A stretch of DNA of 64,000 nucleotides from Massalongia carnosa. Its lineage: Eukaryota. The stretch covers positions 2,356,001 to 2,420,000 of the forward strand of contig OZ287074.1 of NCBI GenBank assembly GCA_965645245.1, read 5' to 3'. The notes below the pieces were generated by a model that made no database searches, was not told the origin of the DNA, and saw only the letters and a program-made list of their open reading frames with translations. How positions within the stretch are numbered: position 1 is the stretch's first letter; each line of letters begins with the position of its first letter. This document shows positions 2,513-33,087 of the stretch, in pieces. The position numbers were made by a program, and so were the translations under genes.

Positions 2513-2558
2513 AGCATTCTTTCGTTGAGTTGTATCTCGTTGGTGTTTCTTGCTCTAG

Positions 2559-11700: not shown

Positions 11701-13811
11701 TAGCCGACCTGACCTCTGGGTCATCAACTGCTCCTTTTACAGGCCAATTTACTAGTAATTCCGAGCAGTCGATCAAATCCGCACCAGGACAGGTACCTCA
11801 GGAACCTAGACCACCACCTCCACCAACATCATCATCCCGACCATCCCGAAACACCTCTCGACCCGATTATGCTAAATTAGCTGATCCATGGTCTAAGAAA
11901 GGAGGTAACAAGGGATTCGCATTGAGAGCTCTTAAGGCCTCCTTAAACGACCTCACCGTCCCCAGCACCTACAAGGAGGCCATTCAGTCTTCAGAGGCTA
12001 CCGAATGGATCCGAGCATCAGAGGAGGTTGAATCTCATTCAATCAACGGGACCTGGGACCTGGAAATTCCCCCACCTGGTAGGAAGATCCTCCCTGGTAG
12101 ATGGGTTTATACCACCAAACTCGGTCCGGATGGGGAAATATCTCGATATAAGGCCCGATGGGTAGGTAAAGTTTTTTGCCAGATAGAAGGCATTGACTAT
12201 AATTAAATCTATGCCAGCGTGGTCAAATCAATGACATGGAAGGCCCTGCTGGCTATAGCGGCTAGATATGACCTGGAGGTCGAACAGATCGACGTGGTCG
12301 CCTCTTTCCTTGAGGCCCCTCTAAAAGAGGAGGTCTGGATGGAACAACCCCATGGGTTTGACAAACCAGGGGGATATGCCAGTCGCTTGAAGAAGGCCTT
12401 GTATGGTCTCAAGCAGGCCCCCCGTGAATGGTATTCCACCCTCACTGACTATCTTATCACCATGGGCTATAGGAGAGTGGACGAGGACTATTCGGTCTAT
12501 ATTCATCAGCAAAATGGCATCATAATAGCGATTTATGTGGATGATCTACTTCTCATCGGACCCTCTCTTTCGGACATCAGTCTTTTGAAGACTAAATTGT
12601 CTCACCGATTCCGGATCAAGGATCTCGGACCAATTAATTTCTATTTAGGGATGCACGTCACTCGGGACCGGCCAAATAGAAGAATATGTGTTCATCAATC
12701 GGCGTACATTAGGCGGATCATCGATGCAGTCGACATGTCCGATTGCAAATCCGTCAAAACACCCATGGAGACCAATCTTCTTCTGGTCAAGAATTACTAT
12801 AAAGGCAAGATATACGAGGCCACAAATAGAGAGATCAAGGCATATCAAATGCTTATTGGATCTCTATTGTGGTTAGCATGTATGACTCGGCCGGATATTG
12901 CTTACTCGGTGAATCGCTGCAGTAGATATTCAATCAATCCTACCCCCTATCAAGGCGCAATCTTAAAAAGAATAATTCGATATTTGGCTGGAACAAGGGA
13001 CCTAGGCCTATGTTTTGGATCCTCCTATGAGGCTATTCACACTGATTTAATCGGTTATACTGATGCCTCTTATGGAGACTGTCTGGACACCAGGAGATCC
13101 ACTTCCGCCTATGTCTTCCTCCTGAACAGCGGACCAATCAGCTGGTCAACGAAACGCCAGGCCTCGCTGGCCACCTCCACAGCTGAGGCTGAGTATATGG
13201 GGGAGTGCCATGCTGGCAAGGAGGCTGTCTTCTTGGCGAATGCCTTGAAATCCTTGATATGGTGTCAATGGCCCCGTTCCCCTGAAAGCTGACAATAAGG
13301 CGGCTATAAAGCTAGCCGACAACCCCATCAATCATCCTCGGGCCAAACACATCGATATCCAGTATCATAAGACGAGGGAGCTGATCGCTGAGGGAGCTAT
13401 TCAAATTAGCTATGTGCCCACTAAGGATATGATAGCTGATGGACTAACCAAGCCTCTACCGTGGATCTCCTTTCGAAGGTTCATCGATCAGATGAATATG
13501 ACCACTGCCCCTGAGGCATCAAATCAATGAGGTTGATTCAAACTTCTGGAGGTTGGAACCTTCCTATTGTGAGGGAGCTTTGGCTTGACAATAGCGACGG
13601 TCCACCTAGCCTTATCGGAGGCTGGCCTTACAATAGGCCGGCCCCCTGAATCCTAATGCGGTAAGGTGGTTAAGGAGGTGTTTGCTATAGCAAACAATCT
13701 GGTCAATAAGGTCCTCGGGAGGACCCCCTCGAACTTCCTTCCTTCTAGATAGCATTAATATAATCACCTTTCAAAGCCTTCAGTCTGCCACTAAGCCTCC
13801 TGTAATCAAAG
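8749..13811 (+). mobile_element. Ty1/copia LTR retrotransposon, full length, decayed
   Basis: LTRs 8749-8981 and 13578-13811; PBS GGTTATGAGCCC 8982-8993; PPT GAGGGAG 13571-13577; TSD GTCTG (8744-8748 and 13812-13816). Confidence 0.96.
9116..13530 (+). pseudogene. copia gag-pol polyprotein (PR-IN-RT-RH order)
   Basis: WWIDSAS (protease); WHRRLAH..CPSC, HTDI, RSDN and NGVAER (integrase); YVDD (RT); YTDAS (RNase H). Several stops and frameshifts. Confidence 0.93.
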
Positions 13812-16800
13812 GTCTGGGGGTGCTAAAAATTTCTTGGAGATCGAGCACCTTCCGGCCTATCCAGATAGTCTCCATGCGCAATCGATGGTGCCTGACGCAC
13901 TCCAGAAGCATATGGTAAACTGTTTGATAACCGAAGCCGCATGGATATTCGCCCGTTTCGGTGCGGCCTATATCTGAGAGATACTTGCGGAGACCAATCT
14001 TACCTGTTCTCATCTGCACCAGGGTGGAACTCATTGACTTGTAAAGTCCCTGATAGAGTTGCAAGACCTTGTTAGTGGGCTGGGGGAGGAGCTTTTTCGT
14101 CATCTGTCCGCGTTTTTCTGCCTCCCAATCCCCAGCCCATTCTTTGCTGATCATTGTCCTCATGTTGCGTTTTATCGCTGACTTCACTGTGTGTCCAAGG
14201 AAGTCGAGGTGGGTGATGGAGGGACTCTGGCCAGGTTCTAACCAGCCTGATGCTTCTTTTGCTGCTTGGTCTGCTATCTCGTTGCCTTCTACTCCCATAT
14301 GCCCAGGTATCTAGCAGAGTCTGACTCTGGCCTGCATCTCCCGGCATGCGTGGAGTTTTCCAATGATCTCGCGTAGTATGAACTGACCTGATTGAGTTCC
14401 GGGTCGGCTACTGATTTGATGGCTGATTGATTATCTGCAAAAACCGTTATTATCTCCCCTTGCCATCGTCCAATAGCCGCCGCCAGTCCCAAGTCGATGC
14501 CCACTAGTTCCGCGAGGAAAACTGTGGCTTCTTTGTTCGTTCCGAGGCGGGTTCCTACCGGTGTGTTGTCGCTCGAGATGACCGCTGCCGCACCAACTCC
14601 GAAGGGGTTATCACTCCCATCCGTGTATATGACTATTTGGTTCGGCTCTGATGTCATCTTGTCATGCTCTTTGATTGCTTTCTCTTTACTGGAAGCAATG
14701 TGCGTTTCGAGGGGAGACCACCATGGTTCCACTATGAATGGAAGAATGACCTCTAACCGCCAGGATTGAGGGCATTTCCCCGAAGTCATTAAGCGGGACT
14801 CTAGCTTAGCTAGAGGGCTCCAGTATCGATAGTGGGAGTCCGCTTGGCTTGTCCAGGCGCGGATCTCACGTATTATGGCGTAAAGGGGGCTTGAACGTAT
14901 GCGCAGTAGTGACTCGTTCACTGCCTGCTCCATGCGTTGCCGGCCAGGCAGGAGGTGAAGCTCCATATCCAAGGCCGGGCCCGCGGTTGTTCTAAATGCC
15001 CCTGAAATGATCAGTGTCGCCCGTCGCTGAATAGATCTGACGGCTTTGAGCACGGCGGTTGCTTGCGTGATAGTCCCGTATCCGCCCTCGGGAACATACC
15101 ATGCAGAGCATCCAAAGGTGAGTTGCGGTAGTATGGTGGCTTGATAGATCCTTCGAAGGCTCGCAAGACTGGTGCCCCATGTGGAGCCCGCAAGGCTGCC
15201 TAGGGCCCCCAGTCTCTTTGAGGTTTTGGCTTCCAGTTTCCTTAAATGGGCGTGCCATTTGAGCTTGTCGTCGAATGTGGCGCCCAGGTAGGTGGCGGTA
15301 TGCTGTGGCTTGATTGTTTTGCCCGCTAGGGAGATAGCTCTCTCCGGGGGGTTCAAATCCGTCTCTGAGGGTCCTTTGATAAAGTGCAAGAGCTGGAATT
15401 TGGCGGGGGCAAATTTGGAGGCGTGTGTGTCCATTTCTGCTCCCTCGTCATGAAGGAGGCTTCGAGATTTCTACAGTTCTGTTCTGCTGAAGTTCCAATA
15501 CTTAGTTTGGATATGTCATCGACATAGCCCAAGTTCATCTTTTTGGGCCCTTCCTCTTCCATAATGTCGGCGTTGTAGAAGAGATAAAGAATAGGAGATA
15601 TAGGGGATCCCTGAAGGACTCCAAAGTTCGTGGTGAATGGTTGCGAGGTGTAGTCGGGCATGGCGATGGTCGTTTTCCTTTCCTGAAGGAAGCTTTCGAT
15701 CCATTTAGCTATGTTGCCGCCTATTCTTCTCTTCCACTTCGTTGTTAAGCCAGGCTGCGTGGATGGCCTCTAGGAGCAGATGGAGGGCGTTTTCGGGTGA
15801 TCTAGCTCGCCTGCCGCCTATATGGAGTCTGGGGAGTAAGCTCTCGGTCTCCACCGCGTGATTGATTCTGGTTGCAATGATCTTCTCCATAGTCTTATCT
15901 AAAGTGTTGAGCAAGGCTATGGGTCTGTATGAATTCGGCAAACTGTAGTCGGCCTTAGCTGGTTTTCTGAGAACCACCGTGGTGGATTCTCCGAAAGTAT
16001 TGGGGTGATGACCTAGTTCCTAGCTGGCATTATACAGAGCTACAAGTGTGGGCATGATGAGCGGTAACACATCTCTGAGGATTCTATTAAGCAGTCCGTC
16101 GGGGCCTGGGGCCGAGAGTGGTGCTGCCTTTGTGATGGCTTTAGTTATTTCCCGAGCTGAGATGGGAGCAAATTGGATTGGCTCTGGATAGTGATAATCG
16201 GCGATGTCTTCAAGATTGGTGGCGTCCGGGATAGGAAAAAACTGTCTGCGAAGCAGTTCAGCCTTGCCCGAGGCCTCCGTCACTTTGGAGCCATCGATTT
16301 TCATTAGGGTTGGGGTGAAGGCTTGGAACGGGGTCGACCTGTTCTTAGCCCATTTCGCAAGCTTCCAGAGACCATCTGGAGTGCTGGTGGCCTCCTCTAC
16401 CCTGTCCCTATGTGTTGTCTTGAGAGCTTTTTGTACGATTTTGTTTTTGCTGTTTCTCGCCTCTCGGTAGGCTTCCCAGTCTTCCAGAGAGCGCGTTTCC
16501 TTATGCTTGCGCCTGAGACGTCTGCATAGGGTGACTGCCTCTTTGCATTCCGGGGTAAAGCCAGGTTTTGAATGATTGCACCCTCTAGAAAGTGGGACTG
16601 CTGTCTCCACTGCGTGCTGGATAGCTTCAACTAACTCATGGGCCAAGTTGTCGAGTTCTTGAACTGTGCTCACGCTCCTAGGTGCCGGGAGCTTGTCTGT
16701 CATCGTGTCTAGTAGCTTTTCCCTATCAGTCTTAGACCACATGCGAGAGGACCTTATGGCCCTCTTAACTGTAGTGATATCGAATGCTGTGCCAATGGAG

Positions 16801-17490
16801 TAGTGATCTGAGTCACAGTCCAACTCTCTTCTCACATCACACATGAGTACGGCTGAAGCCACTGCGGGGGTTGCGAACGTTAAGTCTATCGTGCTCTGTC
16901 CTGATCTATGATCGTATGTTATGGTGCCAGGGGGGAGCAGAAGTTCTAGCTCGCTTTGATCGAGAATCTCCAGTAGTTGGTCTGCCTCCGGATGTTGATG
17001 TGGTAGTCTTCGCCAGTCCATAGGAGATGGTGAAGATTGAAGTCCCCTACCACTATGTGTTCTCCCTCCACCTCTAGCGCCTTGCTTAGGTCTGGCAAGG
17101 TGCTGTAGTTTCCATGAGAGGGGGAGGGATTGTAGATGTTATGGATATTGATGACTCGCTGGGTTTCGCCAGGAAATTCCAAGTGCAAAGTCATCAGATC
17201 GGGAGAGTGGAAGGTTACCTTCCAAGAGGCGCTTGCTATGTCTTTGTTGATGAACATGCATACTCTCGGAGGGAGCTCTTGTTCTCCTGTTTCGGGGGGA
17301 TAGAGAAGGTGAAAACCATTTTTGACCGGATTGTGCGTGGTGTGTTGATAGGGGTTCCCCGCCCAGGGTTCTTGGATAGCCAGGATGCCGTATTTCATGG
17401 TTTCCTCCCTGCGAAGGAAGTCCGCCATGACAGTGTTCTTGGATTTGTTGCAGTTGTACTGAAGTATGGACAGATAGTGGGTGTATTCAC

Positions 17491-18721
17491 TCATAGTTCC
17501 TTTTCTGTCTGAGTACTGGGCTGCAAGCGACAGGTTGCCGATCTGGTGGTCATTGAAGAACTATCGTCGTTCTCCTTATCACTCAAGACCTCCACAGCCT
17601 TCGAGGAGGGTTTCTTCTTTCCCTTCTTAGAAGCTGCTTGTGCCATGCTCCTGTTGGTAGAGCTGGGGTTGTCTGCCAGGGGCTCTACCTCCCCATACGC
17701 CCGCTTCTTCCCCTTGCGGAGAGTTGGCACGGTTTGCCAATCTTTCTCTCGTACAGAGCCCGTTCAAGGGCCCCGTTCCACCTGGGTTGAGGCTGGGTCA
17801 CCTCACTGCTTGTCGTGACCGTCGGCGTGGTCGATGCCGGCGGACTGCTCCGTTCTTGTTCCTGACCATTTAAGGTTTCCCTTTGTTGAGGATAGCCGAG
17901 ATGTCTGCTTATAGAAAATGGCACTAACCCCAATGCGCACTAGCTATTGGAAGTATTTGGATTGGCCACCTTGGGATTTATCATCAACATCCCGCGTCTG
18001 ATATTCTAGGAGACATTCGAACATTCTACAGTGGATTGATAATGAGGCAAATATGTCAGCTTTGGAACTCCGACAAAGACGAGCTTACATATCAGCATTT
18101 GACTGACCGATCACATAGAAAGTGGGAGAATCGTGCTCAAGGCAGGCAGCGGTATATAATGGGCTATATGCCCCCATAGATAGCCTCAGTCATTTTCAAT
18201 CAATCATTAGTAGCCTGCCATTGGATCAGCTTGATCATCGCACGTACTTTTTGCTGTTGTTTCCTACTTCCACCCCTATGATCCGTAGCCTCCGCAACAC
18301 CCTTGAGGAGGCCCTGAGAGCCATAAGGGGAGAGCTTCTTCTTTGGCCCGCTTCATTCGGGCCTTTTCCTTCTTTCGCTCCGGGCAAGACTCTGCGCTTG
18401 CTCGTGGCCCTCCTTGCCACACGCATTGCATTTGAGAGTGACCGATTTACAATCGGTCATGTGGTGACTTTCGGAACATTTGAAGCATGTTTGATGCTTC
18501 TGTCGGCAAGTATGGCTCGTGTGACCATACTTACCGCACCGGAAACATTGCCTAAGCCTGGCCTCCGGAACATGTCTTTCCACCGCGAAAGATCTCCCAT
18601 CCAAATATAGCTGCGAGGCCAAAATGGCGTTGCAGTCTAATTCGTTCTCAAAGTATACCACCATGGATCTAGCTGTGGCTCCTGTCTTACTCGTGCGGGA
18701 CAACCATTCTACTCCTGTTAG
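17491..18721 (-). pseudogene. LINE copy 2 ORF1, 3' part
   Basis: CFRCGKYGHTSHTC, CFKCSESHHMTDC and CNACGKEGH; interrupted by solo LTR 17884-18299 and cut at 18721. Confidence 0.82.
17884..18299. mobile_element. Solo LTR (416 bp), family also at 62770-63185
   Basis: TGTTG...CAACA termini with TSD CCCTT; near-identical second copy. Confidence 0.92.
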
Positions 18722-18913: not shown

Positions 18914-19304
18914 GCTATTTTAGTGCCTTAGTGGGAGTGTAAGAATGTACAAATCAGGCTACTTCATTTCAGCCGCACTCACCTTCTACCGCACGAGTAT
19001 GGCGCACGCTAATGGCTAGACGTATCGCTAGTCTAATACTAGGATACCGTACATTGTCTATAAATCTAGAACAAAAGCAAGCGTTCTATCCTCTATTGAC
19101 TATATATTACTATACTGCCTTTTGATAACATCAGGTTCTGAACATCAGACGGCCCATTTCCGAAAAGCTACTTATGCTACTTTCGGGTTGATAGATGCAG
19201 ATATGTCAAGGGACCGTGAACTAAGCCGAGGAGAAGATAATTAACCTCGACTATGATTTCCCTTACTGTGGCGGGCTTTATCACGATATGAAGATCAGCC
19301 GGTC

Positions 19305-19500
19305 ATGAATGACAACAGGCTTGTAGCGTTCAATGAACACGAAGTCATCCTGAGAATGATCGAGGATGCTAAATTGGTAGATCTGGAGGCACAAGATCAG
19401 CACAAGCGGACAGCGTTAATTTGGGCAGCAGAAGTAGGCCACGAGAAGGTTGTGGAGATGTTGCTGGACAAGGGCGCGGAGGTGAATGCTCAAGGGAGAG
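19305..19500 (+). pseudogene. Ankyrin-repeat gene fragment
   Basis: DLEAQDQHKRTALIWAAEVGHEKVVEMLLDKGAEVNAQG is an ankyrin repeat; no complete gene is visible. Confidence 0.7.
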
Positions 19501-19780
19501 GGTTTGACGACTTCCTGCTATTTGAAACAGTTAGAGCGCACCGCTTAGGCCTCTCTGCTAACGCGGGCGAGTGTAAAACCTAGGGGTAGTCGCGTGCGTC
19601 AGCGAGCTTGATCATTCTGTCACTCATGTTCTGAGCTTTCAGCTTTGGACAAAACAAAAAGTAGTATTCTTACACTGCTTTGTTCATCAACCGCTCAGAA
19701 GATCAAGTTTCAAGGGTAGTGGGATTTAGTTCTGAATTATATGAATCGCTTTAAGACTCCAGTGATAAACTCTCCATCTG

Positions 19781-22226
19781 CTACTCATTGAGATACTTAA
19801 GCGAAGATTCTGTATGAGAATGTTGAGGACCTAGCTTGTGTTTTTGGAGCTGAAAACATTCCTTTAGCAGTGAGAGAGCCTCATCATTGCGGCCTTGAGA
19901 CTTCCACGTGAATGCAAGGTTGCTCATGCTAGTCAGCGTGGAAGGATGCTCCGCCCCTAGCACCCTCTTTATCGTCTCTATCACTTGCACCTGCAGCTCT
20001 TCGGCCTCCGTCCATCGTCCTTGATTCCAATACGTCGACGCAAGATTGGCCATGCTAGCCAGCGTGGAAGGATGCTCCGCCCCTAGCACCGTCTTTCTCG
20101 TCTCCATCACTTGCACGTCCAGCTCTTCGGCCTCCGTCCATCGTTCTTGATTCCAATACGTCGACGCAAGATTGGCCATGCTAGCCAGCGTGGAAGGATG
20201 CTCCGCCCCTAGCACCCTCTTTCTCGTCTCCATCACTTGCACGTCCAGCTCTTCGGTCTCCGTCCATCGTCCTTGATTCCTGTACGTCGACGCAAGATTG
20301 GCCATGCTAGTCAGCGTGGAAGGATGCTCCGCCCCTAGCACCCTCGCACTCGTCGTCATCACTTGCACCTCCAGCTCTTCGGCCTTCGTCCATCGTCCTT
20401 GTCCCTTGTATACCGATGCTAGCATAGCCATACTATTCAATGTTTCTTCATCCTCTGGAGCAAGCACTTTTTGCCTGGTTCTTGTTGCTTTTAGGGCCAT
20501 TGTCGCTGCTTCAGCGTAACTCCCTTTCGCCCACGCATACCATGCAGCGTGATATAGTATCAAGGCCCAATCTTGTAATGAGCTTTCGACAGCTGGCTCC
20601 TGCGCTACTGCCGACTTTGCGTGAGGAAAAAAGGCTTGACACTTTGTCCAATTCTCGTAATCTCCCGTCGGAAATATTGTACTGAGATTCTTGATGTACT
20701 GCTGCTTCCATCTTTCGAGCTGATTGGATGCTTCTAGCCACTTTCTGATGGCTAGCTGCACTAGCCCGTGCATCTCAAAGGTGGTTTCATCCATGCTGAT
20801 GGTGATGAACGAGAAGTTTCTCAAGACAAGTATGTCGTCTTCAAACTCGTCGACACTGGAATCGGATACGGTATCCTTATCGCTATCGTCTTCGTGGTCA
20901 TCATCTTCGTCATTTCCAGCATTTTCTCCCGTATTTTCATTTCCTGCCTCGTTTTGTGTCTTGAGTAATGCCTCAGGAATTCCCTGTCGATCGAAAAAGC
21001 TCATAAGCGACAGCAGATTAGCTGCCGAAGGCTTGATCTGATGAATATGATCAAACGATATTTGCCAGGTTATAATGATTGAATTTTTAGCCTCCAGGTC
21101 CCTGCGAAGATGTCCCGCTTCGTGATTCAACAGACTGGTCTTTCTTTATCATTTTTATAGAACTCTTTTATGTACTGTCGAACAGAATATCTTGGTACTC
21201 TTTGTCGAATGTATGCGGCCGCTTGAACGATGGCAAGCGGCATGAATTCGAGTGCTGCTGCTAGCTCAGCAGTATCATCTCTTTCCATCTGTTCTCCCAG
21301 CTTCTTTTCAAGGAGCGCTAGCGCATGTGTATCGTCCATCGGCTCAACCGGTATTATGTCTCTTTCTTCTGCTAGCCGCAATGCCACGCTTTTAGTCCGG
21401 GAGGTGATGAGAATCGAGCCGTTTCAACTCTGAGGTAGATATGCCAACAGTGATTGCGTGAGCCCGCTTCTAATGCCGCCATCCTGCGCCTTCTGGCCTG
21501 TAGCATGAGTTTCGAAAAGCACAGTAGCTTCGTCGGCATTGTCGAGGACCAGAGCCCACTTTCCGTTCTTCTCGTCGCGTAACCACTTGTCAACTAGCCA
21601 GAATATGTCCGCCTTTGGGTCCTCCCTGCCACGAATCTTGACTTGCTCTGCAACATCCCGATAACCTTGCTCGATACGGGCTGCATTACTAGCGTGTATC
21701 CAGAATACCCACGTCGTCGGCAACAGCTCTCTGATTCGATAGCAGTACTCGATGGCAAGCTGCGACTTTCTTTGCGAAAGTAAGCTATTAAAACTAGTCT
21801 GAGGCCCTTTGGCTTACCCAAGGCCGCCTAGGCCGACAAGCGCTACCCTTGTTGCTGGCGCGGAGCACTTTTCGCGGATCTGATGAAGTAGCGTTCCGCG
21901 ATCGACGAAATCAGGGTCGCGGCGGAAAGGAACAGCAGATGATGGGATTGGTGGGGTATCGGGTCTTTCTACAGACGCAGAATGCTATCAGCCTCGGCTC
22001 ACAGGACGCTATATCATTGCGAATGGCGACTTGCCTGGATATTGAACAATATAGTTTGTCTGAGAGCCTAACCAGGATTTAGCATAAGATCAATATCGAT
22101 GTGAACAGAACGCAAACCAATCACTTTCGCATAGCCTGAGACGTCACCAATCACAGCGCCTTGGTTGCCAGAAATCGTGCCAAAATCCTTCGTGCCTGTA
22201 GAGACTACTGGTGTGTTACCGGCCAT
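19781..22226 (-). pseudogene. Fungal NLR: short N-terminal motif, NB-ARC-type STAND domain and TPR repeats; disrupted
   Basis: Predicted introns 22117-22068, 22034-21969 (GC-AG) and 21817-21770. VPFRRDPDFVDR, P-loop GLGGLGKS, Walker B LVLDNAD, SILITSR, MPLAIVQAAAYI and MHGLVQ, then TPRs. In-frame TGA at 21424 and a frameshift near 21140. Confidence 0.88.
19920..20405 (-). repeat. Near-identical 126-bp (42-aa) TPR repeats of the NLR
   Basis: GAAGGATGCTCCGCCCCTAGCACC recurs at 19941, 20067, 20193 and 20319. Confidence 0.95.
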
Positions 22227-22586
22227 TGCTGCGTCGGAAGATTGTAGACATTAGAACTCAGGGCTTATTGAATAAGACTGAAAACCCCTATCTTTACCGT
22301 CCTCAGGACCGCACCTAGGCTCGGTCAGAAACTCGACGCCCAAGACTTTCCAAAAGCACGATTCATCTATATAAATAAATATAGGCACGGACTCGCCGAT
22401 GGAAGGCCCATCATGCGGGCACGGCGGGATAGATGACTGGCTGATAGAGCCAAGGCTATGCACGTGCTCAAGCGCCTAGTCTCTCCATGCAGCAGTACTA
22501 CGGAGTACAATTATCTCGCATCAGTTATAGCGCTAAGTTTGAAGTACAAGGGTACGACTCCTCTGTGTTGCGATGACAACGCCAGC
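22227..22586. promoter_or_regulatory. Probable bidirectional promoter of the NLR/hydrolase pair
   Basis: 360 bp between divergent ATGs, with a central TATATAAATAAATA at about 22368-22381. Confidence 0.5.
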
Positions 22587-23827
22587 ATGGCCGAACCGTA
22601 CGGATTAGGCGACCCCCTCTTTGGTTCTCCAGACGCGAATATAGAGTACGCACCTGATGTCTCGTCCGGGTTGCTTGGTACTGACCATACAGCATTGGCT
22701 TCGTCCACGGGCTCGGCGGTGACAGAGTGAAAACCTGGACATGGGAGGGTCGCGATAGATCGCTGTTTTGGCCGCAAGATCTCTTACCTCAAGCCTGCCC
22801 AACAACTCGCATCCTTTCTTTTGGGTACAACGCGGACTTGCTCACTTCTATCCGTTTGTTGGGCCGAAATTCATCCCGGAGCATTTAGCTATTGATGATC
22901 ACGCAACTGCAATGTTCCAGAGCCTAATCGGTCTTCGCGAGAAAACGAAAACTGTAGGAATTGGCGCACCCCTTGTCTTTCCACCGGAAATACGCTAATA
23001 GGATGTCTATGTCCAGGCTGAACGTCCGATTATTTTCGTCTCGCACAGTCTAGGGGGTCTCGTTTGCGCCAATGCGTTGTCAAGGCACAATGGTACCGAC
23101 ATGGCTAGCACTAACCTCGTGGAGAGAACGATTGGAGTCGTCTTCCTTGGAACGCCCTTTGAAGGATCGTCAAAAGCAAAATGGGGAAGCAGAGCTCTAC
23201 AGATATTGGGCTGGATAAGCACCACGCATAAGCAGGATATAAAGGATCTTGAAGAGCGTTCGGCAAAGCTCATCAGCGTTAACGAAGCCTTTCAGAAATT
23301 CCTGAAAGCACGGGATCGTTCAGAATCAAGATAGTTTGTGGAAGTAGCTTGTTTCTTTGAACAGTATGCTATGTATAAGGGAGGGACGAAGATGGGATTT
23401 ATCGTGCCCAAGGAATCGGCTTGCCTGCCTGGTATCGATCCACAGTCGATCCAGGCGAACCATGTTGATATGTGCAAGTTTGAGGATGAATACCGAGAGA
23501 GATACAAGAAAATTTCACAAAAGTTGGTTCAATGGATATCGGATCTTGATAGTCGATCCAAGGGGTCTGGAGAGGATCGCCAGGTCTGACATCTCTTTCG
23601 CGCGCTTGAAGTTAGCTGAAAATCAACAGAAACATTTGGTTCGTATGGGCGATGTTAACTTTAGGGACAAAATCGATAGGTCATGCAAATAGTACGGCCA
23701 CAGAAGGGGTTAAGATAACTGGGAGTAGTATCACTGTAAGGATCACCTATCCTTTCGATAGCGATGTACAAGCTGACAGAACATAAAGAATACTTATCAT
23801 AGCATTAACTCAAAAGACTCTGTGTAG
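22587..23827 (+). pseudogene. SesB-like alpha/beta hydrolase with C-terminal low-complexity motif; disrupted
   Basis: Predicted introns 22646-22692, 22954-23016 and 23584-23629. DIGFVHGLGG, FWPQDLLP, RILSFGYNAD, nucleophile IIFVSHSLGG, FLGTPFEGS and ANHVDMCKF. Frameshift near 22838, TAG at 23332, frameshift near 23675. The 3' end is uncertain. Confidence 0.85.
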
Positions 23828-24499
23828 ACCGAGGGATAGGCAATGGCGGAACTACTAGTCAACATTGCGGAGTCATTCTAGGAAACTATTCAGGAACATG
23901 AAATAATCAATTGACTTTTTGACGTCTTTCAAAACAATGTTTTTTTGCGTGGTCATCAGCTTCGGGTGAAAGTTGACTCCTTGTGAGACGTGAAGAGCTC
24001 GCATGACAAGAGTTCCAGGCTTCAAATATGCCGCAGCTAGAGGGGCCTCTTAGCAGAGAATGCTTATCCAATTTATGTCCGATCTCTGAATCCTGCCCTT
24101 GCTTCCGTAAGCACTTCAGAACAAAAGTCTGCCAAGATCTTAAATCATTATTGAATGAATAAGCATCTTACTTCACTGAGCTACGTAGATGCAATGGTGG
24201 AGATTTTCAAAGATGTACCATCAGTGCTTACGCCTGTCGAGCCTTTGATAAAGTACGCTAAAATTGTAAAGCGATTGAGCATCACAATCGACGACATAGC
24301 TGAAGATGAGACGAGCAATTACAATACATCAAGTCCTGACATCTATTCCTATCATTTTCATTATGTCAGGTCAGTACGTTGACAGTACGTTGACATTATT
24401 GAGATTTTGTTTCGACATTTCAAAGCCTTTAAGCAAGGACTGAGGTTGACAGAAAAACCTTCACTGATCTAAGTGATAATTGACTTGTGATTCACAGAG

Positions 24500-24776
24500 A
24501 ACGAAGTGCAAGCGACATCAAAAGAAGATCATGATCAAGCATTGCAGCTGCTGCTGAAGAAAAGAGCCGATGAGAACGCTCGAGGTGGAGCCATTGACGA
24601 TGCAACTGCAGACGGCGTCATTTAATGATCATGATCGAGTGATGCAGATACCGCTCGATAAAGAGGCTAATCTCAACGCACAAAGTGAAGGCTGTGACTA
24701 CACATTGTAGACGGCATCAGCGAAAGGTCATGATTAAGAGATGCAAATGTTACTTGCCGCTGGTGCAATAGGGTAG
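24500..24776 (+). pseudogene. Degenerate ankyrin repeats
   Basis: HDQALQLLLKKRADENARG, HDRVMQIPLDKEANLNAQ and TASAKGHD..MLLAAGA, with stops and frameshifts. Confidence 0.62.
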
Positions 24777-24879: not shown

Positions 24880-26468
24880 TTGATAATTATCGTCTAACCC
24901 GTTAAAACCCTCGCATTCTTGTCTATCTAGAGTTTGGCTGCTCCCTCCTATTCGCACCACGCTGACGCCCTAGGCGAGTGACAGAGAAACTCCCAAATCC
25001 CAAAACTGAATGGCCTGCTGGCAGTGCCGTTCCGACCGATGCTAGCCTGACTGATGCTGCTTCGACTAAGGCTTAACCGGGCGAGGATAAAGGGCGCTGA
25101 AAACGTATAGATGTGTTGAGAACTTAATCTAAACTAGACTGAATGTAAAGCTGGTATGAATTCGATTTCTATCGTCCAAGTTGCTATATTTCTTCTTTAG
25201 AAAGTGCGTTTATTCAGCTGTGGTTGTTGCTGCTCTTCTTCTGAACGTCTGGAAAATTTTCATTTTATGCCTAGCTAATTAATATCTGATTGGAGCCGGA
25301 TGATGAGATACTATTTTATAAGAGAGCCGCCTTTTGAATAAAATAAGAGGCTAGAAGAAGGTCGTGGAAATTGGATGAACAAGTTTCGGAGAGAGGAAAT
25401 TGCGCAAGTTCCACCGTAAGCATTATGCCTTTTCTGACTCGATCAGTTTCGAAGCAAGAGCTTATTAAACTGAATTCCTGCTAATTGTCTTATTAATTGT
25501 CATGACGCAAATTCAGGATTCTGAAAATCTTTATTTAAGCAGGTGAACTTTCCTGCTCGGAGAAAAGTTGCAAAAGTTAAACAGTAAGCGGCGCGTATCA
25601 CTGCTTGTGATTCGACTGTTAAATCAAGCTGTGACACTAGTTGTAAAAGAAAATTCTTTGTGATAGGAAGACGCTCGCGATTGTCTTCTTCCCCTCGTCT
25701 TCTTCTGATGGCCGTGATCAGTCTCTGAAGTGAAGAATGATAAAAGATTGCCAGATCTTCCACACCAAAATCAATTAACATAGATCTAAGCCCGGCAAGG
25801 TAACCCTTGAGGGTTTTAAAGGCAATTTTCCGTTTGACTAGCTCGGTGATTTCTGAACCTATTCTTTGCAAGATAGCAGGAAAATAGGAAACGATCTTGC
25901 TGACTTGACAACGAATCTCGTAGCTTCTTCTAGCTGAGGAATTAAAATCTCAAGTCTTGGTTGCTAAATCCAATCATATCAGATTGATTGACTCTTTGTC
26001 AAAAGAAGTTTGAGTGCAAAAGATTGGAGGAGGATCATGAACAAAGGTGTTGCTATTGCCTGGAAATTAGAATACCTGTCAGCGATCTTTGGTATTTTTC
26101 CTCGAGATAACGTGTCAATAGCAGCATTTTCTCTGGTGCTGATACGTCAAGGTTTAATCTTAATGTCATTCAAAGCGGCCAACATGGCAATTGCCCAAAA
26201 GGCATGTATAGCACTACCTCGAATAGATGTTGTTTTTACTCCTATTGCAACAGCAAAATTGTCACAATGAAGAACCAAATAGCTTCCTTTAACAAAGAAG
26301 AGCCATTTTTAACCGTCATACTCGCATTAAAGAGCTCTCTACTTTGGAAGAAGCAGTTGTCAAAACTCAATTTCTCGATAATGCGACCGTTGTAGTCAGC
26401 AATTGAATATATATTGAGAAGTTCAACAGCAAGCTCGACAAGTTAAAATGACGCGCTTGCAATGTATG
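24880..26468 (-). mobile_element. Old, degenerate Ngaro-type element (RNase H end, tyrosine recombinase, B repeat)
   Basis: LVLHCDNFAV..TSIRG (RNase H), then TLKGYLAGLRS, ERLPIT and FATFLRAGKF (YR). B-like repeat at about 24880-24995. Many stops. Confidence 0.8.
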
Positions 26469-26777
26469 AGTAACTCGCTAGGGCGAAAGGTAATGACGGG
26501 ACCGAGTGGAGGCAGGCCGTGGATAGCCAACGAAGGCCGAAGGCCGAAGGAGGATGATGTCCAAATAGTTGGACAAGGAGGGGAAAGAAAGGGCATAAAT
26601 AGGTGGCCTTTTGGCACTCTTCTCCTCATCATCACCATTGATTCGGAGTTCAGCACCAAAAGGTCTTTTGAAAGTCTTTCCCGAATTAAACACATCTGTC
26701 AATCACCCACCCTCAACCCCATCATTCTAAATCACCTCCATTTCTCATCCTATATTACCTCCCACATTGAGCCCATC

Positions 26778-27902
26778 ATGCCTTCCCATCGCCCTCAAAG
26801 AATCACCAAGCCTTCCGCCCGCTCCGGAAATACCTCCGGGCCTAGTCAACGTCCCACTCGTTCCACCCGACCCCCTAGGGGAGGGGCCATAGTTCCAGAA
26901 ACACAGCATCCTCCGAACACTCAAGGCTCGGAAGGAACACTTCCGGGCGATGTGATAGACGTCCACCGAAGACCGGAACCAACCCCGGACCTGCTGTTGG
27001 ACCTCAGGGCTCAGCAGGAGGCCACGGCGACAGCCCTCAGGCAGGAGGAGACCCGTCACCTTCAAAAGCAAATCGCCGACAACTTGGCGGCCATTCAGCG
27101 CATAAGGGAAGGAAACACAGTCCCCGAGGGCAGGCAGGAGGCACACACTCCCCACCCGAACCAGCTACTGCCCGCTGAAACCGAAGGTACGGATCCATGT
27201 CTCCTTCCTCTAATTATCGAGTATCCCGCCATAAACAGCATTTATTTCCGACAAATTCTGAACAACAAATTCGAGCCCATAAATATTTCCAAGCTCTGCA
27301 CCGATGTAGTCTTAATCAAAGCAACTGTCAAACGAGTGAACCTGGCCAAAGGATACGAGTTAATACAAGAAGAAGACGACGCGTCACCAGGAGACATCAA
27401 CGGACTACCTCACCTGATTCGCTGCCTCGGGGTGTATTGGCAGGTCTTGCTTCATTTGGCACCATCCGGAATAAAAGACAGTCTTTGTAGGGCCTTTCAA
27501 ATCTATCAGGACCGTTTGTTGTTACATTACACCATCTACACTTGGGAGTCAGTACGAGTTTTTCATATAATCTTCCACAGGGGTCGGGTGTACCAGGGAG
27601 TGAACGACCCGGCCGGATGGAGGAGAATCGACACCACCGTCGAAAACATGTACCTTACTCGACGGACACCGAACTTGTCCATGACGGGAGGTACCACCAA
27701 GCAGCACCCGGGATCAATTCCGGTAGGCGGCTCCACTGAACCAAAGCCTATGTCCTGCAATCGATACAACGCAGGGCGGGAATGCAAGGACTGCAGGTAC
27801 CCTCACATCTGCAGTCTCTGTTTCGGCCATCACACGAAAAACAACTGCCCCAAGGCACATATCAGCAACCCAAATTTCATGTCAACAGGTAGACGAGATT
27901 GA
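26778..27902 (+). CDS. Ngaro 1 ORF1 (gag-like, C-terminal CCCH and CCHC fingers)
   Basis: Open frame from ATG 26778; homologous to Ngaro 2 ORF1 (EYP.I, PINI.KLCTD, HLIRCLGVYW, YTW.SVR.FH). Confidence 0.8.
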   Translation: MPSHRPQRITKPSARSGNTSGPSQRPTRSTRPPRGGAIVPETQHPPNTQGSEGTLPGDVIDVHRRPEPTPDLLLDLRAQQEATATALRQEETRHLQKQIADNLAAIQRIREGNTVPEGRQEAHTPHPNQLLPAETEGTDPCLLPLIIEYPAINSIYFRQILNNKFEPINISKLCTDVVLIKATVKRVNLAKGYELIQEEDDASPGDINGLPHLIRCLGVYWQVLLHLAPSGIKDSLCRAFQIYQDRLLLHYTIYTWESVRVFHIIFHRGRVYQGVNDPAGWRRIDTTVENMYLTRRTPNLSMTGGTTKQHPGSIPVGGSTEPKPMSCNRYNAGRECKDCRYPHICSLCFGHHTKNNCPKAHISNPNFMSTGRRD

Positions 27903-29510
27903 CTAACCGGCCCATTTGATCATATCGCCGAAGGGTTCCCCTATCCGCTGATAGATAAAGCAGCAATCGTACCCTCAGGGCCTCTAAGAAAAGAAGGCTG
28001 GGAACTTCACCTCATGGGTCATCGGGACAAAATTTACAAACAGACCATTCAAGATATAATCGTGTACGGGGCCAAAATTGGTTACACCGGCCCAGATCAG
28101 TTCATTCTAAGCAGCAACCTGGCCTCGGCCAACGAGGCCCCAGAAATTCTGACCATGGACGTAGAGGACCAAAGGGCCAAAAACCGATTGATCGAGGTGC
28201 CCACCCTACCAGCCAAATATATATGCTCCCCCTTAGGCTTAGTCCCCAAAGCAAACGGAGGATGGCGCCGTATTCATCACCTCTCCCACCCCGAGGGTAA
28301 TTCGGTGAACGACTTCATTCCCGGGGAGGGCGCTCTGGAATATATCACTTTCGACGAAGCCCTCGCCGGCGTCAGAAGAATGGGCAAGGACTGCGTACTG
28401 ATCAAACGAGATCTAGCCGATGCCTTTCGCCACGTTCCAGTGGCGCAAAGCGATTGGTGGTTGCTGGGATTTTGTTGGAACGGGGTTTACTGGATAGAAC
28501 GCTTTCTTCCATTCGGCCTCAGGACGTCTCCCTTCTTGTTTGACTTATTCGCGAAAGGTCTGAACTGGATGATGATTAATAAAACAAATGGCGAAGTTAT
28601 TCACTACTTGGACGATTTTCTCGGAATCGTTCGCGCTATTCCCGATGCGGCATCCTTCGATCGGAACTTTGCCGAAATTTGTTCAGTCGGCCTAAAAATC
28701 AACGAAAAGAAAAATAAACAAGGCACGGTAGTCGAATTCCTGGGCATAGAGCTGGACACACACCTGATGCAGGCACGACTACTGGCCGAAAAGCTTCAGA
28801 AAGCTAAGGATCTCGTCCAATCAACATTGAATAAATCCACGATAACCAGAAACGAGCTAGACACTCTGCTAGGATTTCTGTGCTTTGCAGCCAAAGTGGT
28901 GGTACCGGGAAGAACCTTTCTCCGACGCCTTTTGAACAGCAAAATCGGGCCCGCGCGCCCATTTATTCATATCAATTCTCACATAAAAGCTGATCTTTTA
29001 TGGTGGCATCATTTCATTCCATTATGGAACGGCATACACATTATTAGCCCTTCGAGACCCCTGCTCCGTCTCTGGACGGATGCTAGTGGGGACTTCGGAA
29101 TCGGGGCATACATACTTCAAGGTAGTCAGACCACACACACATTGCCCGCTGAGCAAGTGGTTTCTGAACGTTATACCACCAGGCTCAGAGCCAAACATAT
29201 CAATGAGAAGGAGATGACAGCGATTCTGCACGCCATACGGCGGTGGCTCCCCATGTGCAAGGGAGCTCATCTTCTTCTTTATTGCGACAGCTTTGCTGTA
29301 ATGTCCGGGGTCAAAAAGACCTCCATTCGTTGCGGGGCCATGCATCCCCTCCGGAATATCGCCATGATGGCGGCAATATATGACATTGAGATTGAACCAC
29401 ACTGGCTGTCTACCAAAGAAAATTTCTTAGCAGATTGGTTGTCCCGAGGACTATTTGGAAAAATCGCTGACAATTACCCCAACCTGCAAGGCATTTCATT
29501 GAACAAATAA
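27903..29510 (+). CDS. Ngaro 1 reverse transcriptase-RNase H
   Basis: SPLGLVPK, WRRIHHLSHP, LPFGLRTSP, HYLDDFL, WTDAS and YCDS; in frame with ORF1 after TGA. Confidence 0.92.
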   Translation, partial: LTGPFDHIAEGFPYPLIDKAAIVPSGPLRKEGWELHLMGHRDKIYKQTIQDIIVYGAKIGYTGPDQFILSSNLASANEAPEILTMDVEDQRAKNRLIEVPTLPAKYICSPLGLVPKANGGWRRIHHLSHPEGNSVNDFIPGEGALEYITFDEALAGVRRMGKDCVLIKRDLADAFRHVPVAQSDWWLLGFCWNGVYWIERFLPFGLRTSPFLFDLFAKGLNWMMINKTNGEVIHYLDDFLGIVRAIPDAASFDRNFAEICSVGLKINEKKNKQGTVVEFLGIELDTHLMQARLLAEKLQKAKDLVQSTLNKSTITRNELDTLLGFLCFAAKVVVPGRTFLRRLLNSKIGPARPFIHINSHIKADLLWWHHFIPLWNGIHIISPSRPLLRLWTDASGDFGIGAYILQGSQTTHTLPAEQVVSERYTTRLRAKHINEKEMTAILHAIRRWLPMCKGAHLLLYCDSFAVMSGVKKTSIRCGAMHPLRNIAMMAAIYDIEIEPHWLSTKENFLADWLSRGLFGKIADNYPNLQGISLNK

Positions 29511-30533
29511 CGGCGTCACTCGCCCGCGACCCTCCAGAGACTTGGTATAACGAGGTTCCGCTGGATCGCCGAGCAGCCAGATATTTATGGTGGGGCATAA
29601 CAATTAGGACTCGAGGGCTATACGATGCAGCCCGGAAAAGCTACACGACCCACTGTCAATTGGCAACGAATTTCCTCCCTTTCCAGCGACAATTCGAAGC
29701 CTTTCGGCATGGATAGCCGCCCTGGGTCAGCGAGGGCTCCGCCCCAAAACCATCAAAAACTATTTAGCTGGAGTACGATCGAGCCAATTGGACATGGGCC
29801 TAGGGGACCTGGAGGTCTTTCACCATCCAGTCCTAGACAGAATAATTGCGGGAATAAAACGAATGCACGGTGAACCAGAAAGACGAGAATGGCTACCAAT
29901 CACACGCAACATTTTGATAAAATTGCTACGGAAATTAGACACTACTAACGAGGTCCAGGCAACACTTCATGCGGCATACAGCATCGCATTCGCCGCCTTC
30001 TTAAAAGCGGGAGAATTTACCTACAAACAGGGAGAAATGCAAGACTCCAGCTTCGATTCATGGCATTTAACTAGGAAATCGGTGGATCTACAGGCGGATC
30101 GAATAATTCTTTCCCTACCGTCATCCAAGACGGATCCTTTTCGAAGGGGTAGAAAAATTTATATCGCAGCAACAAACGACGAAGCATGCTCGATCACCTC
30201 CATTCGGAACTTGTTTACCCGATTCCCGAAACCAGCATCGTCCCATTGTTCCAGGTTCAGGACAAGGCCTTCACTCGTGAATATTTAGTGCAGGCCCTAC
30301 GGAGTGGCCTCCGGGCAGTTGACGTCCGAGGGAATTACTCGGGTCATTCGTTTCGACGGGGTGCAGCAACAACGGCCAAGAACTCGGGCTTGCTAGAGGA
30401 AGATATTCAGACCTTGGGCCGATGGAAATCAGACTCGTATCAATTGTACATTCAGACACACCCGGACCAATTAATAGCGACCTCCCTTCGTTTTCAACGA
30501 CCCCCCGCCACGTTCCGAACAGCACCACCGTAG
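29490..30533 (+). pseudogene. Ngaro 1 tyrosine recombinase, frameshifted
   Basis: FLKAGEF, SKTDPFRRG, GHSFRRGAAT and LGRWKSDSYQLY across pieces 29788-30288 and 30186-30533. Confidence 0.88.
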
Positions 30534-30727
30534 GTGGGCCATTCCCTGCTTGGGGTTGGGAGTTTTTCCCCTCACTGCTGCCAAAACAAAGCCATTATAG
30601 GAGGGGCCCTCAGCAAAACTGAGCGCCAGCAGGGAAGCAGCGAGGGGAGAGTTGCCCAAACATAGATAGAAATTATATATATGTTCAGCTGACACGATGG
30701 AGCCCGCGAATTACCTATAATTTGACA

Positions 30728-30815
30728 AGAGGTCTCTTTTAAGCGAATTTCACATTCGCTTTATTTTTTTGGTGGCAGGAGACCTTCAAATCAAGAACAC
30801 TAAGTATACAAGTAT
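30728..30815 (-). repeat. Family A terminal module (stub)
   Basis: Reverse complement of 61092-61174 and 50690-50772. Confidence 0.75.
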
Positions 30816-30879
30816 CACTAGTACTCATCTCACTCCTGCACACCACGTCATCGTCGGCGGACCGCACGTCTTCCCTTAA

Positions 30880-33087
30880 CTACGTCAGTTTTGGGATACG
30901 CTCCGCCAAGACTTGACCTCTGAAGGTCCTTACAAAGTCAGCATTGGTGGCATGAGGTTGAGGTTGCAGGAGTTGCAGGATAAAGATACCCAAGCTCAGA
31001 TGATCAGAGCAGAGAAGCTTGGAAAAGATGGCTGGGAAGACACCGAGGGGATTTTGCATTATCAAAGGCCTTATGTCCCTAAGATCCTCAGAACTGAGCT
31101 AATCAGTAGGCATCATGATGATCCATTAGCAGGACACTTCCGTATCGAAAAGACGCGAGAACTCATTGCGAGAAAGTACTTCTGGGAGACTATCCGCCGC
31201 GATGTCGAGAGCTATGTCAAGGGTTGCGACGTCTGCTTATTCTAAAGCGGTCAGACACAAGCCTTACGGAAACCTAAAGTCACTGCCAGTGCCAACTCAT
31301 CGCTTGAAAGACTTGTCTATGGATTTCGTGACGGAGTTGCCTGAATCTGCTGATTGGAAGCGCGATAGCTACGATTCGATCCTGGTCATCGTCGACCGAC
31401 TTACAAAGACGGTGCACTATGAGCCAGTGCTGACAACGGTCACTGCACCATGGCTAGCAGAAGTAATCATAGACGTGGTAGTTCGTCACCACGGCTTGCC
31501 AGACTCTATCGTCAGCGACCGCGGCTCAGTTTTCACTTCCAAGTTCTGGTCTTCCTTGTGCTACTTTTTAGGCATCAAGCGACGCCTCTCTACCGCGTTC
31601 CATCCACTGACCGATGGGCACACCGAACGCCAGAACAGCACCATGGAAGCCTACTTTAGGGGGTTCGTCAACTACGAACAAGACGACTGGGCGCGCTTGC
31701 TTCCGATGGCTGAGTTTGCGTACAACAATACGAGAAATGCGAGCACTGGGCATACGCCGTTCGAGCTCAACTCTGGTTACCACCCCCGTGTTTCATATGA
31801 GGAAGACATCGACCCCCGCTCCAGGTCCAAGTCAGCAAACGAACTAGCTGCAGAACTAAAGGACTTGATGGCTATCTGCAAGGAAAACCTTCAGCACGCA
31901 CAAGAATGGCAGACAAAGGCCCACAACAAAGGAACCAAGCCACGGAGCTATGCACCTGGCGATAAAGTTTGGTTGAACAGCAAGTATATTAAGACCATAC
32001 GTAATCGCAAGCTAGTGGCTAAGTTCTTCGGGCCATTCCGTGTCTTGCAACCAGTGGGCAAGCAAGCCTATAAGCTGAAGCTTCCAAAACGGTGGCGCAT
32101 CCATGATATCTTTCATGTATCACTACTAGAGCAGGACACCATAAGGAAGAGGCGGGTGGACGAGAAGATCGCGGAGCAGCTAGAATTCGGAGCTGGTAAC
32201 GATGAGGAGTACGAGGTTGAAGGCATTTTGGATAGCGCGGTCTACGCCAAGGAATCAGAAGCTGGCCACCTACCAGGCCTTTACTATCAGGTCTCCTGGA
32301 AGGGCTATCCAGAGGATGAAAGTACGTGGGAACCGGCGGCAGCGATCAAACACCTTCGGAAGATCGTCAAAGCCTACCATGAGGGTAACCCCACCAAGCC
32401 GACAGCAACCTCTCCTCCTATCAACACCGCACCGCCAATGGCTAAGCCGACCGTTAAGCCTAAATGCAAGCGGAGACGCGGCCGACCAGCTACCAGCACT
32501 CGGAACAAGAAGGCGCAGAAGTAGAAGCCTCGGGGTTTTTCTCCTGCCACCTGCTATGGAGTCTAGGAAAGGTTTTCCCTTCGTTTTCCCGTTATTATCA
32601 GGGTTTAAGGGTTTTTCATCGATCTTGAGAAGTCGGTTTTCCCTATGTTCTCCCGTTGTCTTATCAGGGTTTTAGGGTATTTCATCGATCTCGACAAGTC
32701 GGTTTTCCTCATCAGTTCCCACTGGGTTAGGAGGTATTTCATTGACTTCGGAGGCCGGTTTTCCTCCTTGCTATCATACTAGGAAGGAGGTTTTTCACCG
32801 ACTGCCATAAACATCATACCACCCACCTAACGTGTCGTTACTATCCACTACACGCTCGGCGGAGCTCGCGTCCTAGAGGGGAGGCAATTATAATACGGAT
32901 GGCGCTAGAGGGATACGTGATCGCCTAGGGCGATTGCGAGATTAACTAGCATGAGCCAAGCCGTAGTATGAAGTCGCAGAGCCGTCAAGGTTGCCACATC
33001 GCCGCCTTGACATAAAACTATCTTGCCACAACGCCACCTTGCCACACAACTTCGGATTAGTTGTTATCACGTTCTAGACTGCTTACA
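30880..33087 (+). mobile_element. Chromodomain Ty3/gypsy element, 3' fragment (integrase-chromodomain, PPT, 3' LTR)
   Basis: HHDDPLAGH..CDVC, LSMDFV, VSDRGSVF, TDGHTER, GPF and EYEVEGIL..VSWKGY..TWEP. PPT at about 32875-32885; probable LTR 32889-33087 (T(G/A)TAA...TTACA). Confidence 0.88.

Follow-up and report, generated by a model that had tools for sequence, protein, structure and literature searches.

A head-to-head NLR and SesB-like hydrolase gene pair in Massalongia carnosa shares a candidate amyloid signalling motif

Introduction

Fungal NOD-like receptors (NLRs) are known from modules such as NWD2/HET-S, PNT1/HELLP/SBP and het-eN/SesA/SesB, in which the receptor and the effector encoded next to it carry matching amyloid motifs, N-terminal in the first and C-terminal in the second. 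Passages of the literature on these motifs distinguish four or five families, namely HRAM, sigma, PP and PUASM, beside a provisional pair, GDQN. Here, we analyze a 64,000-nucleotide stretch of the Massalongia carnosa genome (contig OZ287074.1, positions 2,356,001 to 2,420,000 of the forward strand; this whole stretch is called the window, and coordinates count from its first letter), where an NLR gene (19781-22226, minus strand) and a SesB-like alpha/beta hydrolase gene (22587-23827, plus strand) lie divergently, head to head. A motif of about 40 residues is common to the NLR's N-terminus and the hydrolase's C-terminus, and we ask how it compares with the motifs already described.

The PP module of Chaetomium globosum (PNT1/HELLP/SBP) likewise places an effector-less NLR beside a SesB-like lipase, with one terminal motif shared between them. 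Passages of PMC3321046 give this motif as FxGx(x)NxGLQLxGxNxGxL, a pseudo-palindrome of 17-18 residues, whereas the motif of the window extends over about 40 residues and is not pseudo-palindromic. PP, RHIM and BASS3 have the same N-x-G-phi-X-phi-G spacing as the window motif, but theirs is centered on Q, while the family of the window motif has V, I or L there and never Q. The PP module also includes HELLP, whereas no HeLo-like partner was seen in the window.

In the sigma module of Nectria haematococca (het-eN/SesA/SesB), as here, the effector is of the SesB type and the motif, about 40 residues long, is present in full on both proteins; according to passages of PMC3321046, the motif also escapes annotation because the NLR gene is split by an intron at its 5' end, as in the window. 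Sigma differs in its submotifs A and B (in the same passages GxGxQFNxx and GGTQNINT, in three repeats) and in its match to NACHT_sigma. HRAM1-5, known from NWD2/HET-S, follow the same gene-pair logic, and their hydrophobic-x-hydrophobic-G-[NDH] elements also occur in the window motif (VxMGD, VVMGH), but the HRAM effector is a HeLo protein with an r1/r2 duplication, while the effector of the window pair is a hydrolase with no duplication. PUASM (FxGxGxQxxGxGxF in passages of PMC9815663) and the provisional GDQN (NxxxGxQYxxxGxGDQN in passages of PMC12261475) are recent fungal NLR-associated motifs, found by the same logic of N-terminus, C-terminus and neighbor; they are tied to PNP_UDP and SesA effectors, and the window motif to a SesB-like hydrolase.

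Results

An effector-less NLR and a SesB-like hydrolase lie head to head

The NLR is modeled as a protein with NB-ARC and tetratricopeptide repeats (TPR) and a short N-terminal motif, based on Pfam matches and on colinearity with P0003, an annotated 800-residue NLR of Lobaria immixta. In its large open reading frames (ORFs) Pfam recognizes TPR_10 (3e-72), DUF7779 and NB-ARC, while no Pfam domain is found upstream of the NB-ARC, before about residue 88. An N-terminal effector domain is thus missing, as a preliminary description of this DNA had stated, and the divergent SesB-like hydrolase that it had placed 360 bp away is there: the NLR starts with the ATG at 22226, the hydrolase with the ATG at 22587, and the intergenic region between the two start codons (22227-22586) measures 360 bp.

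Searching with a hydrolase exon returned 56 homologues among 299 candidates. The one designated P0004, a protein of 344 residues, is 93% identical to the window hydrolase over the query exon, and by tblastn it is colinear with the window through all five exons of the gene. The AlphaFold2 model computed for P0004 with an alignment of 22 relatives (pTM 0.75) has a confident alpha/beta hydrolase core at residues 1-289, and its Foldseek matches are generic esterases, thioesterases and monoglyceride lipases. The sequence has the HSLGG nucleophile elbow. Of the Pfam families of the SesB type (PF05057, PF07819, PF12697), the cut-off is passed by PF05057 in P0019 and P0042 and by PF12697 in P0010 but by none in the fragments of the window itself, and database names of the relatives include 'SesB-related' and 'SERAC1'. 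By fold and nucleophile elbow, together with these families, the protein belongs to the SesB-like alpha/beta hydrolases. The tail of P0004, which carries the motif (residues 290-344), has a pLDDT below 50 beside the confident core, and it therefore lies outside the hydrolase fold.

The two termini share a motif of about 40 residues

The first exon of the NLR encodes MAGNTPVVSTGTKDFGTISGNQGAVIGDVSGYAKVI, and a second, short exon (..SQTNYIVQYP) holds the end of the motif (..SQTNY..). The tail of the window hydrolase reads ..VRMGDVNFRDKID, then a break of the frame, IGHANSTATEGVKITGSSIT, an intron and NTYH... The letters of this tail are as first described, but what had been taken for a frameshift is really a deletion of 20 nt that removes the motif core, and the I of 'IGHAN', formerly counted as a motif residue, is a product of the deletion junction. 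The decay of both genes and their surroundings, rich in transposable elements, were absent from that description, and the full motif is visible only in intact relatives, whose tails have the consensus h-S-V-x-M-G-D-V-N-[YF]-x-x-K-I-[ED]-N-N-x-G-V-V-M-G-H-A-Y-S-T-A-x-D-G-V-R-I-T-G-S-x-x-x-N-x-Y. In a MAFFT alignment, the N-termini of the NLRs extend over the entire hydrolase tail with a single gap of four residues.

We measured this resemblance against chance with a profile made of 20 hydrolase tails, from which all NLR sequences were excluded. On the N-terminus of the window NLR the hydrolase-only profile scores 16.8 bits and on that of P0003 13.4 bits, and in each case one of 5000 composition-preserving shuffles reached the score. 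The six-frame ORFs of at least 15 residues from the window and from a related metagenome contig, L001, numbered 2,705, and among them the best matches outside the hydrolases were the first exons of the two NLRs (E 0.0013 in the window and 0.0091 in L001), followed by the second exon of the L001 NLR (E 0.26), with all others at E 3 or above. The claim that the two termini carry the same motif was therefore upheld.

The core of the motif is N-x-G-phi-V-phi-G, in the form N-Q-G-A-V-I-G in the NLR and N-x-G-V-V-M-G in the hydrolases. Compared with the hydrolase cores, the tails are enriched in G (2.0x), N (2.7x), V (1.9x), T (1.8x) and Y (2.2x) and depleted in L (0.14x), P (0.21x) and K (0.5x), a bias that coincides with the one described for amyloid signalling motifs in passages of 10.1101/2020.01.06.895854. 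An internal repeat of three G-h-h-h-G segments was considered and found no support (best z 1.3).

Related gene pairs keep the motif on both proteins

The preliminary description had expected intact related pairs to keep the shared motif, and two of them do. L001, a metagenome contig of 2,984 nt and the single locus obtained when metagenomes were scanned with a narrowed motif profile, holds exons 1 and 2 of an NLR gene head to head with a hydrolase gene whose tail is intact, with about 290 bp between the two ATGs. The first NLR exon is 109 nt long both in L001 and in the window, and 23 of its 36 codons differ, 10 synonymously and 13 not. In Lobaria immixta, the NLR P0003 (MMC22_008330) and a motif-bearing hydrolase, P0110 (MMC22_008331), have consecutive locus tags on one contig of 53,149 nt. 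A Lobaria immixta protein is also the best protein match of the window's NLR exon 1, which is 86% identical to P0003, compared with about 64% for the remainder of the protein. The window belongs to a lichen-forming ascomycete related closely to Lobaria. An NLR exon-1 ORF (P0002) and a hydrolase (P0112) are probably on the same contig as well, since the longest contig has an equal length of 28,538 nt for both.

The pair may extend to other fungi. In Cenococcum geophilum, the hydrolase OCK93015 (P0119), in which the tail is present, follows by accession number the NLR OCK93014, which S1 Table of PMC9815663 lists as a protein of 1,130 residues with an unannotated N-terminus of 92 residues, 'noasm'. 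By accession number, the Pseudogymnoascus hydrolase OBT51772 (P0041) falls between OBT51771, a NACHT-ANK protein whose model begins inside the NOD, and OBT51773, a HeLo-like NLR. A protein of 192 residues from Clathrospora elynae (P0103, KAF1941162.1) joins a decayed hydrolase and a degenerate motif, in frame, to a proline-rich linker of the NLR family, so that the pair may have fused or collapsed in this protein.

On the hydrolase side, the tail is present in 24 of the 56 homologues; among the remaining 32, many gene calls end at the intron before the tail, and two are NLRs (P0058 and P0059), each with a part that matches the window hydrolase exon (38% and 33% identity, respectively), of which P0058 also has PF05057 and PF12697 and P0059 lists neither. 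When 1.84 billion representatives were searched exhaustively with the profile, 50 proteins matched at E<=1e-3, and 15 did so at E<=1e-10. Most of these matches are either hydrolases of about 350 residues, in which 2-50 residues separate the motif from the C-terminus, or short ORFs of the tail exon. P0109 is a further first exon of NLR type, which stops at the same intron position. Among the 50, four long repeat proteins (P0090, P0100, P0102 and P0106) were judged spurious and excluded from the counts. Named motif-bearing hydrolases come from Polyplosphaeria, Dendryphion, Lindgomyces, Neocucurbitaria, Kalmusia, Cenococcum, Aspergillus nanangensis, Penicillium canariense, Bombardia, Diplogelasinospora, Xylariales, Xylaria, Pseudogymnoascus and Lobaria, which we take to represent several classes of Pezizomycotina, the class assignments being our assumption for all but Cenococcum, Pseudogymnoascus and Lobaria. 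The more distant hydrolase homologues P0056 and P0057 (JGI) have different tails, rich in G, N and Q and unnamed by Pfam, which suggests that hydrolases of this family also occur with terminal motifs of other kinds.

The motif departs from the published signatures tested

For comparison with the known families, we used 73 motif sequences (77 profile matches among 109 stored proteins, less 4 spurious). Neither N.G.Q.G.N nor G.Q.G, the signatures of PP, RHIM and BASS3, occurs in any of the 73. The center of G-phi-X-phi-G is V in 48, I in 19, L in 4, A in 1 and M in 1, and Q in none, which bears out the earlier remark that the PP/RHIM core spacing is kept with V in place of Q. Submotif A of sigma (GxGxQF) was found in 0/73 and submotif B (GGTQN) in 1/73, with no threefold repeat. 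For HRAM, the positional rules in passages of PMC4518210 were applied as a unit of 21 residues, present twice (r1, r2) in the effector, in which position 3 is N/Q/H, position 15 R/K and position 19 G and positions 5, 8, 10, 16 and 18 are hydrophobic; the best offset reached 4-6 of 8 features, no better than shuffles (up to 7), and no r1/r2 repeat was seen. PUASM (FxGxGxQxxGxGxF) and GxGDQN each gave 0/73.

Pfam searches at E <=10 with 22 motif peptides and 8 full proteins returned none of PF11558, PF17108, PF17046 (named as the PP model in the passages at hand), PF17106 (NACHT_sigma) or RHIM, a negative weakened by the HMMER filters. Within the part of the supplements of PMC9815663 that the comparison covered, nine motif-bearing hydrolase accessions (including OBT51772 and OCK93015, whose accession is of a 2016 series) and 12 core words were absent, apart from chance matches, and a literature search found no description of the motif. 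That this 2022 catalogue labels the NLR beside OCK93015 'noasm' is indirect evidence in the same direction. The earlier view of a divergent or uncatalogued motif thus agrees with the silence of the Pfam amyloid models and with published patterns that match at most one of the 73 sequences. By published patterns and Pfam, the motif appears to lie outside PP, sigma, HRAM, PUASM and GDQN, in a comparison to which the BASS1-10 and NLR34 profiles are external.

Could it still be a divergent member of PP/RHIM/BASS3, with the same beta-arch geometry around G-phi-X-phi-G and V or I for the central Q? NLR and hydrolases agree exactly in their N-x-G-phi-X-phi-G spacing, passages of PMC5485727 and PMC3321046 already describe PP on SesB-like lipases (SBP), and passages of 10.1101/2020.01.06.895854 describe G-phi-Q-phi-G as common to PP, RHIM and BASS3. 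Yet the defining central Q is missing in 73/73 and the flanking N of the pseudo-palindrome is replaced, the PP patterns, PF17046 and RHIM find nothing, and PP has 17-18 residues where this motif has about 40, and we consider membership in this group unlikely. A more distant kinship, in which the motif would possibly be a Q-less offshoot of PP/RHIM, is compatible with the spacing of the core.

Structure of the two genes

On the minus strand, the predicted exon 1 of the NLR, which carries the motif (22118-22226; 36 codons and 1 nt, 109 nt in all), is followed by an intron of 50 nt with GT..AG borders in phase 1 (22068-22117), which has 49 nt at the same position and phase in L001, and by exon 2 of 33 nt (22035-22067), which is one codon shorter in L001 (30 nt). 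The second intron, of 66 nt (21969-22034), has a GC donor (GCAAGT), and L001 has GTAAGT at the equivalent site; the GCAAGT donor (22033-22034) is either that of a rare GC-AG intron or an additional lesion. In the gene model, exon 3 (21818-21968) encodes a proline-rich linker and the start of the P-loop, and after a third intron of 48 nt (21770-21817) comes the body of the NB-ARC. At the other end of the gene, repeat analysis and the TPR_10 match delimit an array of near-identical TPR units (19914-20401, minus strand; 126 nt x 3.9 copies, 93% matches). Such highly similar repeats are typical of fast-evolving sensor domains of fungal NLRs. The window NLR has one TPR unit of 42 residues fewer than P0003.

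The five exons of the hydrolase model lie at 22587-22645, 22693-22953, 23017-23583, 23630-23735 and 23789-23827 on the plus strand. Homology and the profile match place the C-terminal motif in exon 4 (23633-23735), where the deletion breaks it; exon 5 (23789-23827) completes the motif (NTYH..) and contains the stop codon, like the ..NTYHGINP.. tails of P0007, P0010 and P0051. In contigs of 1.8-2.5 kb, P0004, P0111 (on 15 contigs) and P0115 are unbroken ORFs of 344-394 residues that run across all four intron sites, and the ORF of P0115 continues through the 5' leader. These contigs look like spliced transcripts of a relative that is 93% identical.

Both genes are decayed in this genome

The window pair consists of decayed pseudogenes, of which the NLR has two lesions and the hydrolase three. 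We compared the window with contigs of four sequencing runs (X1, X2, X3 and X5, from at least three studies, a lichen metagenome being among their labels), which have 35-55% of sampled words in common with it. Joints of these contigs are shallow, and none coincides with a predicted intron.

In the NB-ARC of the NLR, an in-frame TGA (21424-21426, minus strand; LPQS*NGSILITSR) stands where P0003 has Leu, and in all covering contigs of the four runs, at all depth, 21426 reads G, which gives CGA (Arg). A deletion of 1 nt in a T run (21141-21147, minus strand) shifts the NLR frame (KNDKERPVC* / RKTSLLNHEAG), as judged by homology and by the run contigs: an extra T follows 21144, at full depth for X2, X3 and X5 and at a depth of 23,390 out of 53,557 for X1. 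The same two kinds of evidence locate a 1-nt deletion in the hydrolase (22837-22838, plus strand; YNAD / FAHFYP), where the extra T behind 22837 has all the depth of X2, X3 and X5 and 22,882 of 30,899 of that of X1. With respect to the window, X3 and X5 have one base fewer at 22815 and one more behind 22837, so that about 7 codons are read there in a different frame than in X1 and X2.

The second lesion of the hydrolase is an in-frame TAG (23332-23334, plus strand; RDRSESR*FVEVACFF), replacing Glu of P0004 and P0110-P0112; this site is not among the differences shown by the run contigs. The third is the 20-nt deletion, with its junction at 23678-23679 (plus strand), by which the motif core (NNRGVIM in relatives) is lost and the frame shifted, according to the run contigs and to ORFs from the European Nucleotide Archive (ENA). 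Behind 23678, contigs of X3 (4 records) and X5 (1 record) have loose ends in which the missing 20 nt are present, and the intact tail exon is found as six ORFs of 86-146 residues and one fragment of 53 residues on seven large ENA contigs (P0068, P0126-P0131). Relatives are thus intact at four of the five lesion sites.

The two homopolymer indels may be assembly errors, an unlikely origin for the two substitutions and the 20-nt deletion. Repeat-induced point mutation is not claimed as the source of the stop codons: CGA>TGA fits it, and GAG>TAG is a transversion.

Transposable elements surround the pair

Transposable elements occupy the window on either side of the pair (1-18700 and 25500-64000), with LINE, Copia, Gypsy and Tc1 remnants filling its surroundings. 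LINE-like ORFs for reverse transcriptase and endonuclease lie at 3-4145 and 16023-17560 (both minus strand), a Copia element at 9831-13289 (plus), Gypsy elements at 26418-32521 (plus), 35655-39529 (minus) and 56590-60563 (plus), and a Tc1/mariner remnant at 46365-48071. At 40150-44607 (minus), an unbroken Gypsy pol ORF of 1,486 residues has reverse transcriptase, RNase H, integrase and an SH3-like integrase-associated domain, and this element is possibly young or active.

An ankyrin-repeat remnant (19257-19583, plus; Ank_2, 2.5e-08), on the strand opposite to the NLR and just past its 3' end, could be what is left of another gene, perhaps of a different NLR. The ORFs at 24491-24710 that look like ankyrin repeats have no Pfam match.

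Discussion

The arrangement found here has the features of the generic pair architecture of Daskalov 2012, namely an effector-less NLR, homology between the receptor's N-terminus and the neighboring protein's C-terminus, and adjacency that is conserved in the window, in L001 and in Lobaria immixta. We therefore read it as a two-gene module of an NLR and its effector, like NWD2/HET-S, PNT1/HELLP/SBP and het-eN/SesA/SesB, in which the NLR bears at its N-terminus the G-, N-, V- and T-rich motif in place of an effector domain and the divergent hydrolase bears the same motif as a flexible C-terminal tail. Upon binding of a ligand, oligomerization of the NLR would gather its N-termini into a cross-beta template, and this template would convert the hydrolase tail, by which the enzyme would be activated or relocated. 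We favor such a templated conversion as the most likely mechanism, with a probability of about two in three, because the anatomy matches the established architecture of NLR/effector amyloid signalling point for point.

Several points weigh against this interpretation. The NLR introns are predicted from homology and a gene model. The three NLR N-termini of full length are only 33-43% identical to the hydrolase motifs over 34-39 aligned columns, and P0109, of which there is exon 1 only, is 25-43% identical to them over 28. Identity within a locus is no higher than between loci, and co-variation of the NLR and hydrolase motifs within a locus was not seen (two loci). The motif has one strongly conserved N and no Q ladder, and no internal periodicity was detected (best z 1.3). 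The NLR side comprises five sequences only (the window, P0001/P0002, P0003, P0109 and L001), and neither the exhaustive search nor a word-indexed one found a full-length motif NLR from the classes rich in motif-bearing hydrolases; the word-indexed search, with an alignment of 22 motif sequences, gave no new NLR among the 7,998 candidates scored, and the ESM Atlas had no usable match to the N-terminus of P0003. We assume that this scarcity could come from first exons missed in annotation. In Cenococcum and Pseudogymnoascus, adjacency is inferred from accession order only. The amyloid behavior of the motif is itself inferred.

A second alternative takes these points further: the shared tail would be a non-amyloid interaction or regulatory peptide, such as a beta-strand docking site, a localization signal or a degron, acting with no prion-like templating. 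The lack of a Q/N ladder and of a detectable repeat agrees with such a peptide, as does a tail that is merely unstructured in the AlphaFold2 model. Against it, position, length, composition, effector type and gene arrangement all fit the amyloid-signalling modules in the passages that describe them, and the motif is depleted in P and charged residues, and we regard a peptide of this kind as improbable. A chance likeness of two low-complexity stretches rich in G, N, S and T, or a recent functionless local copy, which the short, compositionally biased regions and a pairwise identity of about one third might suggest, is very hard to reconcile with a score reached by one shuffle in 5000, with both NLR first exons singled out of 2,705 ORFs, with pairing in three loci, with an exon 1 that differs at 23/36 codons and still keeps its size and motif, and with a hydrolase tail conserved across several fungal classes.

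A more ambitious version of the templating mechanism can be put forward tentatively, with less than even confidence. The motif would then define a new amyloid family, related to the RHIM/PP fold and lacking its Q, with a hydrophobic V/I ladder instead of the buried glutamine ladder, carried by SesB-like hydrolases of Pezizomycotina and overlooked on a small first exon of the NLR, and the window would hold a null allele that segregates against intact alleles in close relatives.

In this genome, the locus is a decayed relic amid transposable elements, and for this reason the module is dead and has no present function here. The meaning of the finding lies in the family. If the reading is true, a motif family tied to the SesB-like hydrolase, the commonest enzymatic effector of NLRs, in several classes would enlarge the catalogue of amyloid motifs, and it would serve as a natural experiment on the need for the central Q of the RHIM/PP core in templating. 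The peptides from intact alleles are short enough for a direct assay of fibril formation and cross-seeding. The analysis also suggests that some NLRs with short, unannotated N-termini, such as those labeled 'noasm', have overlooked partners.

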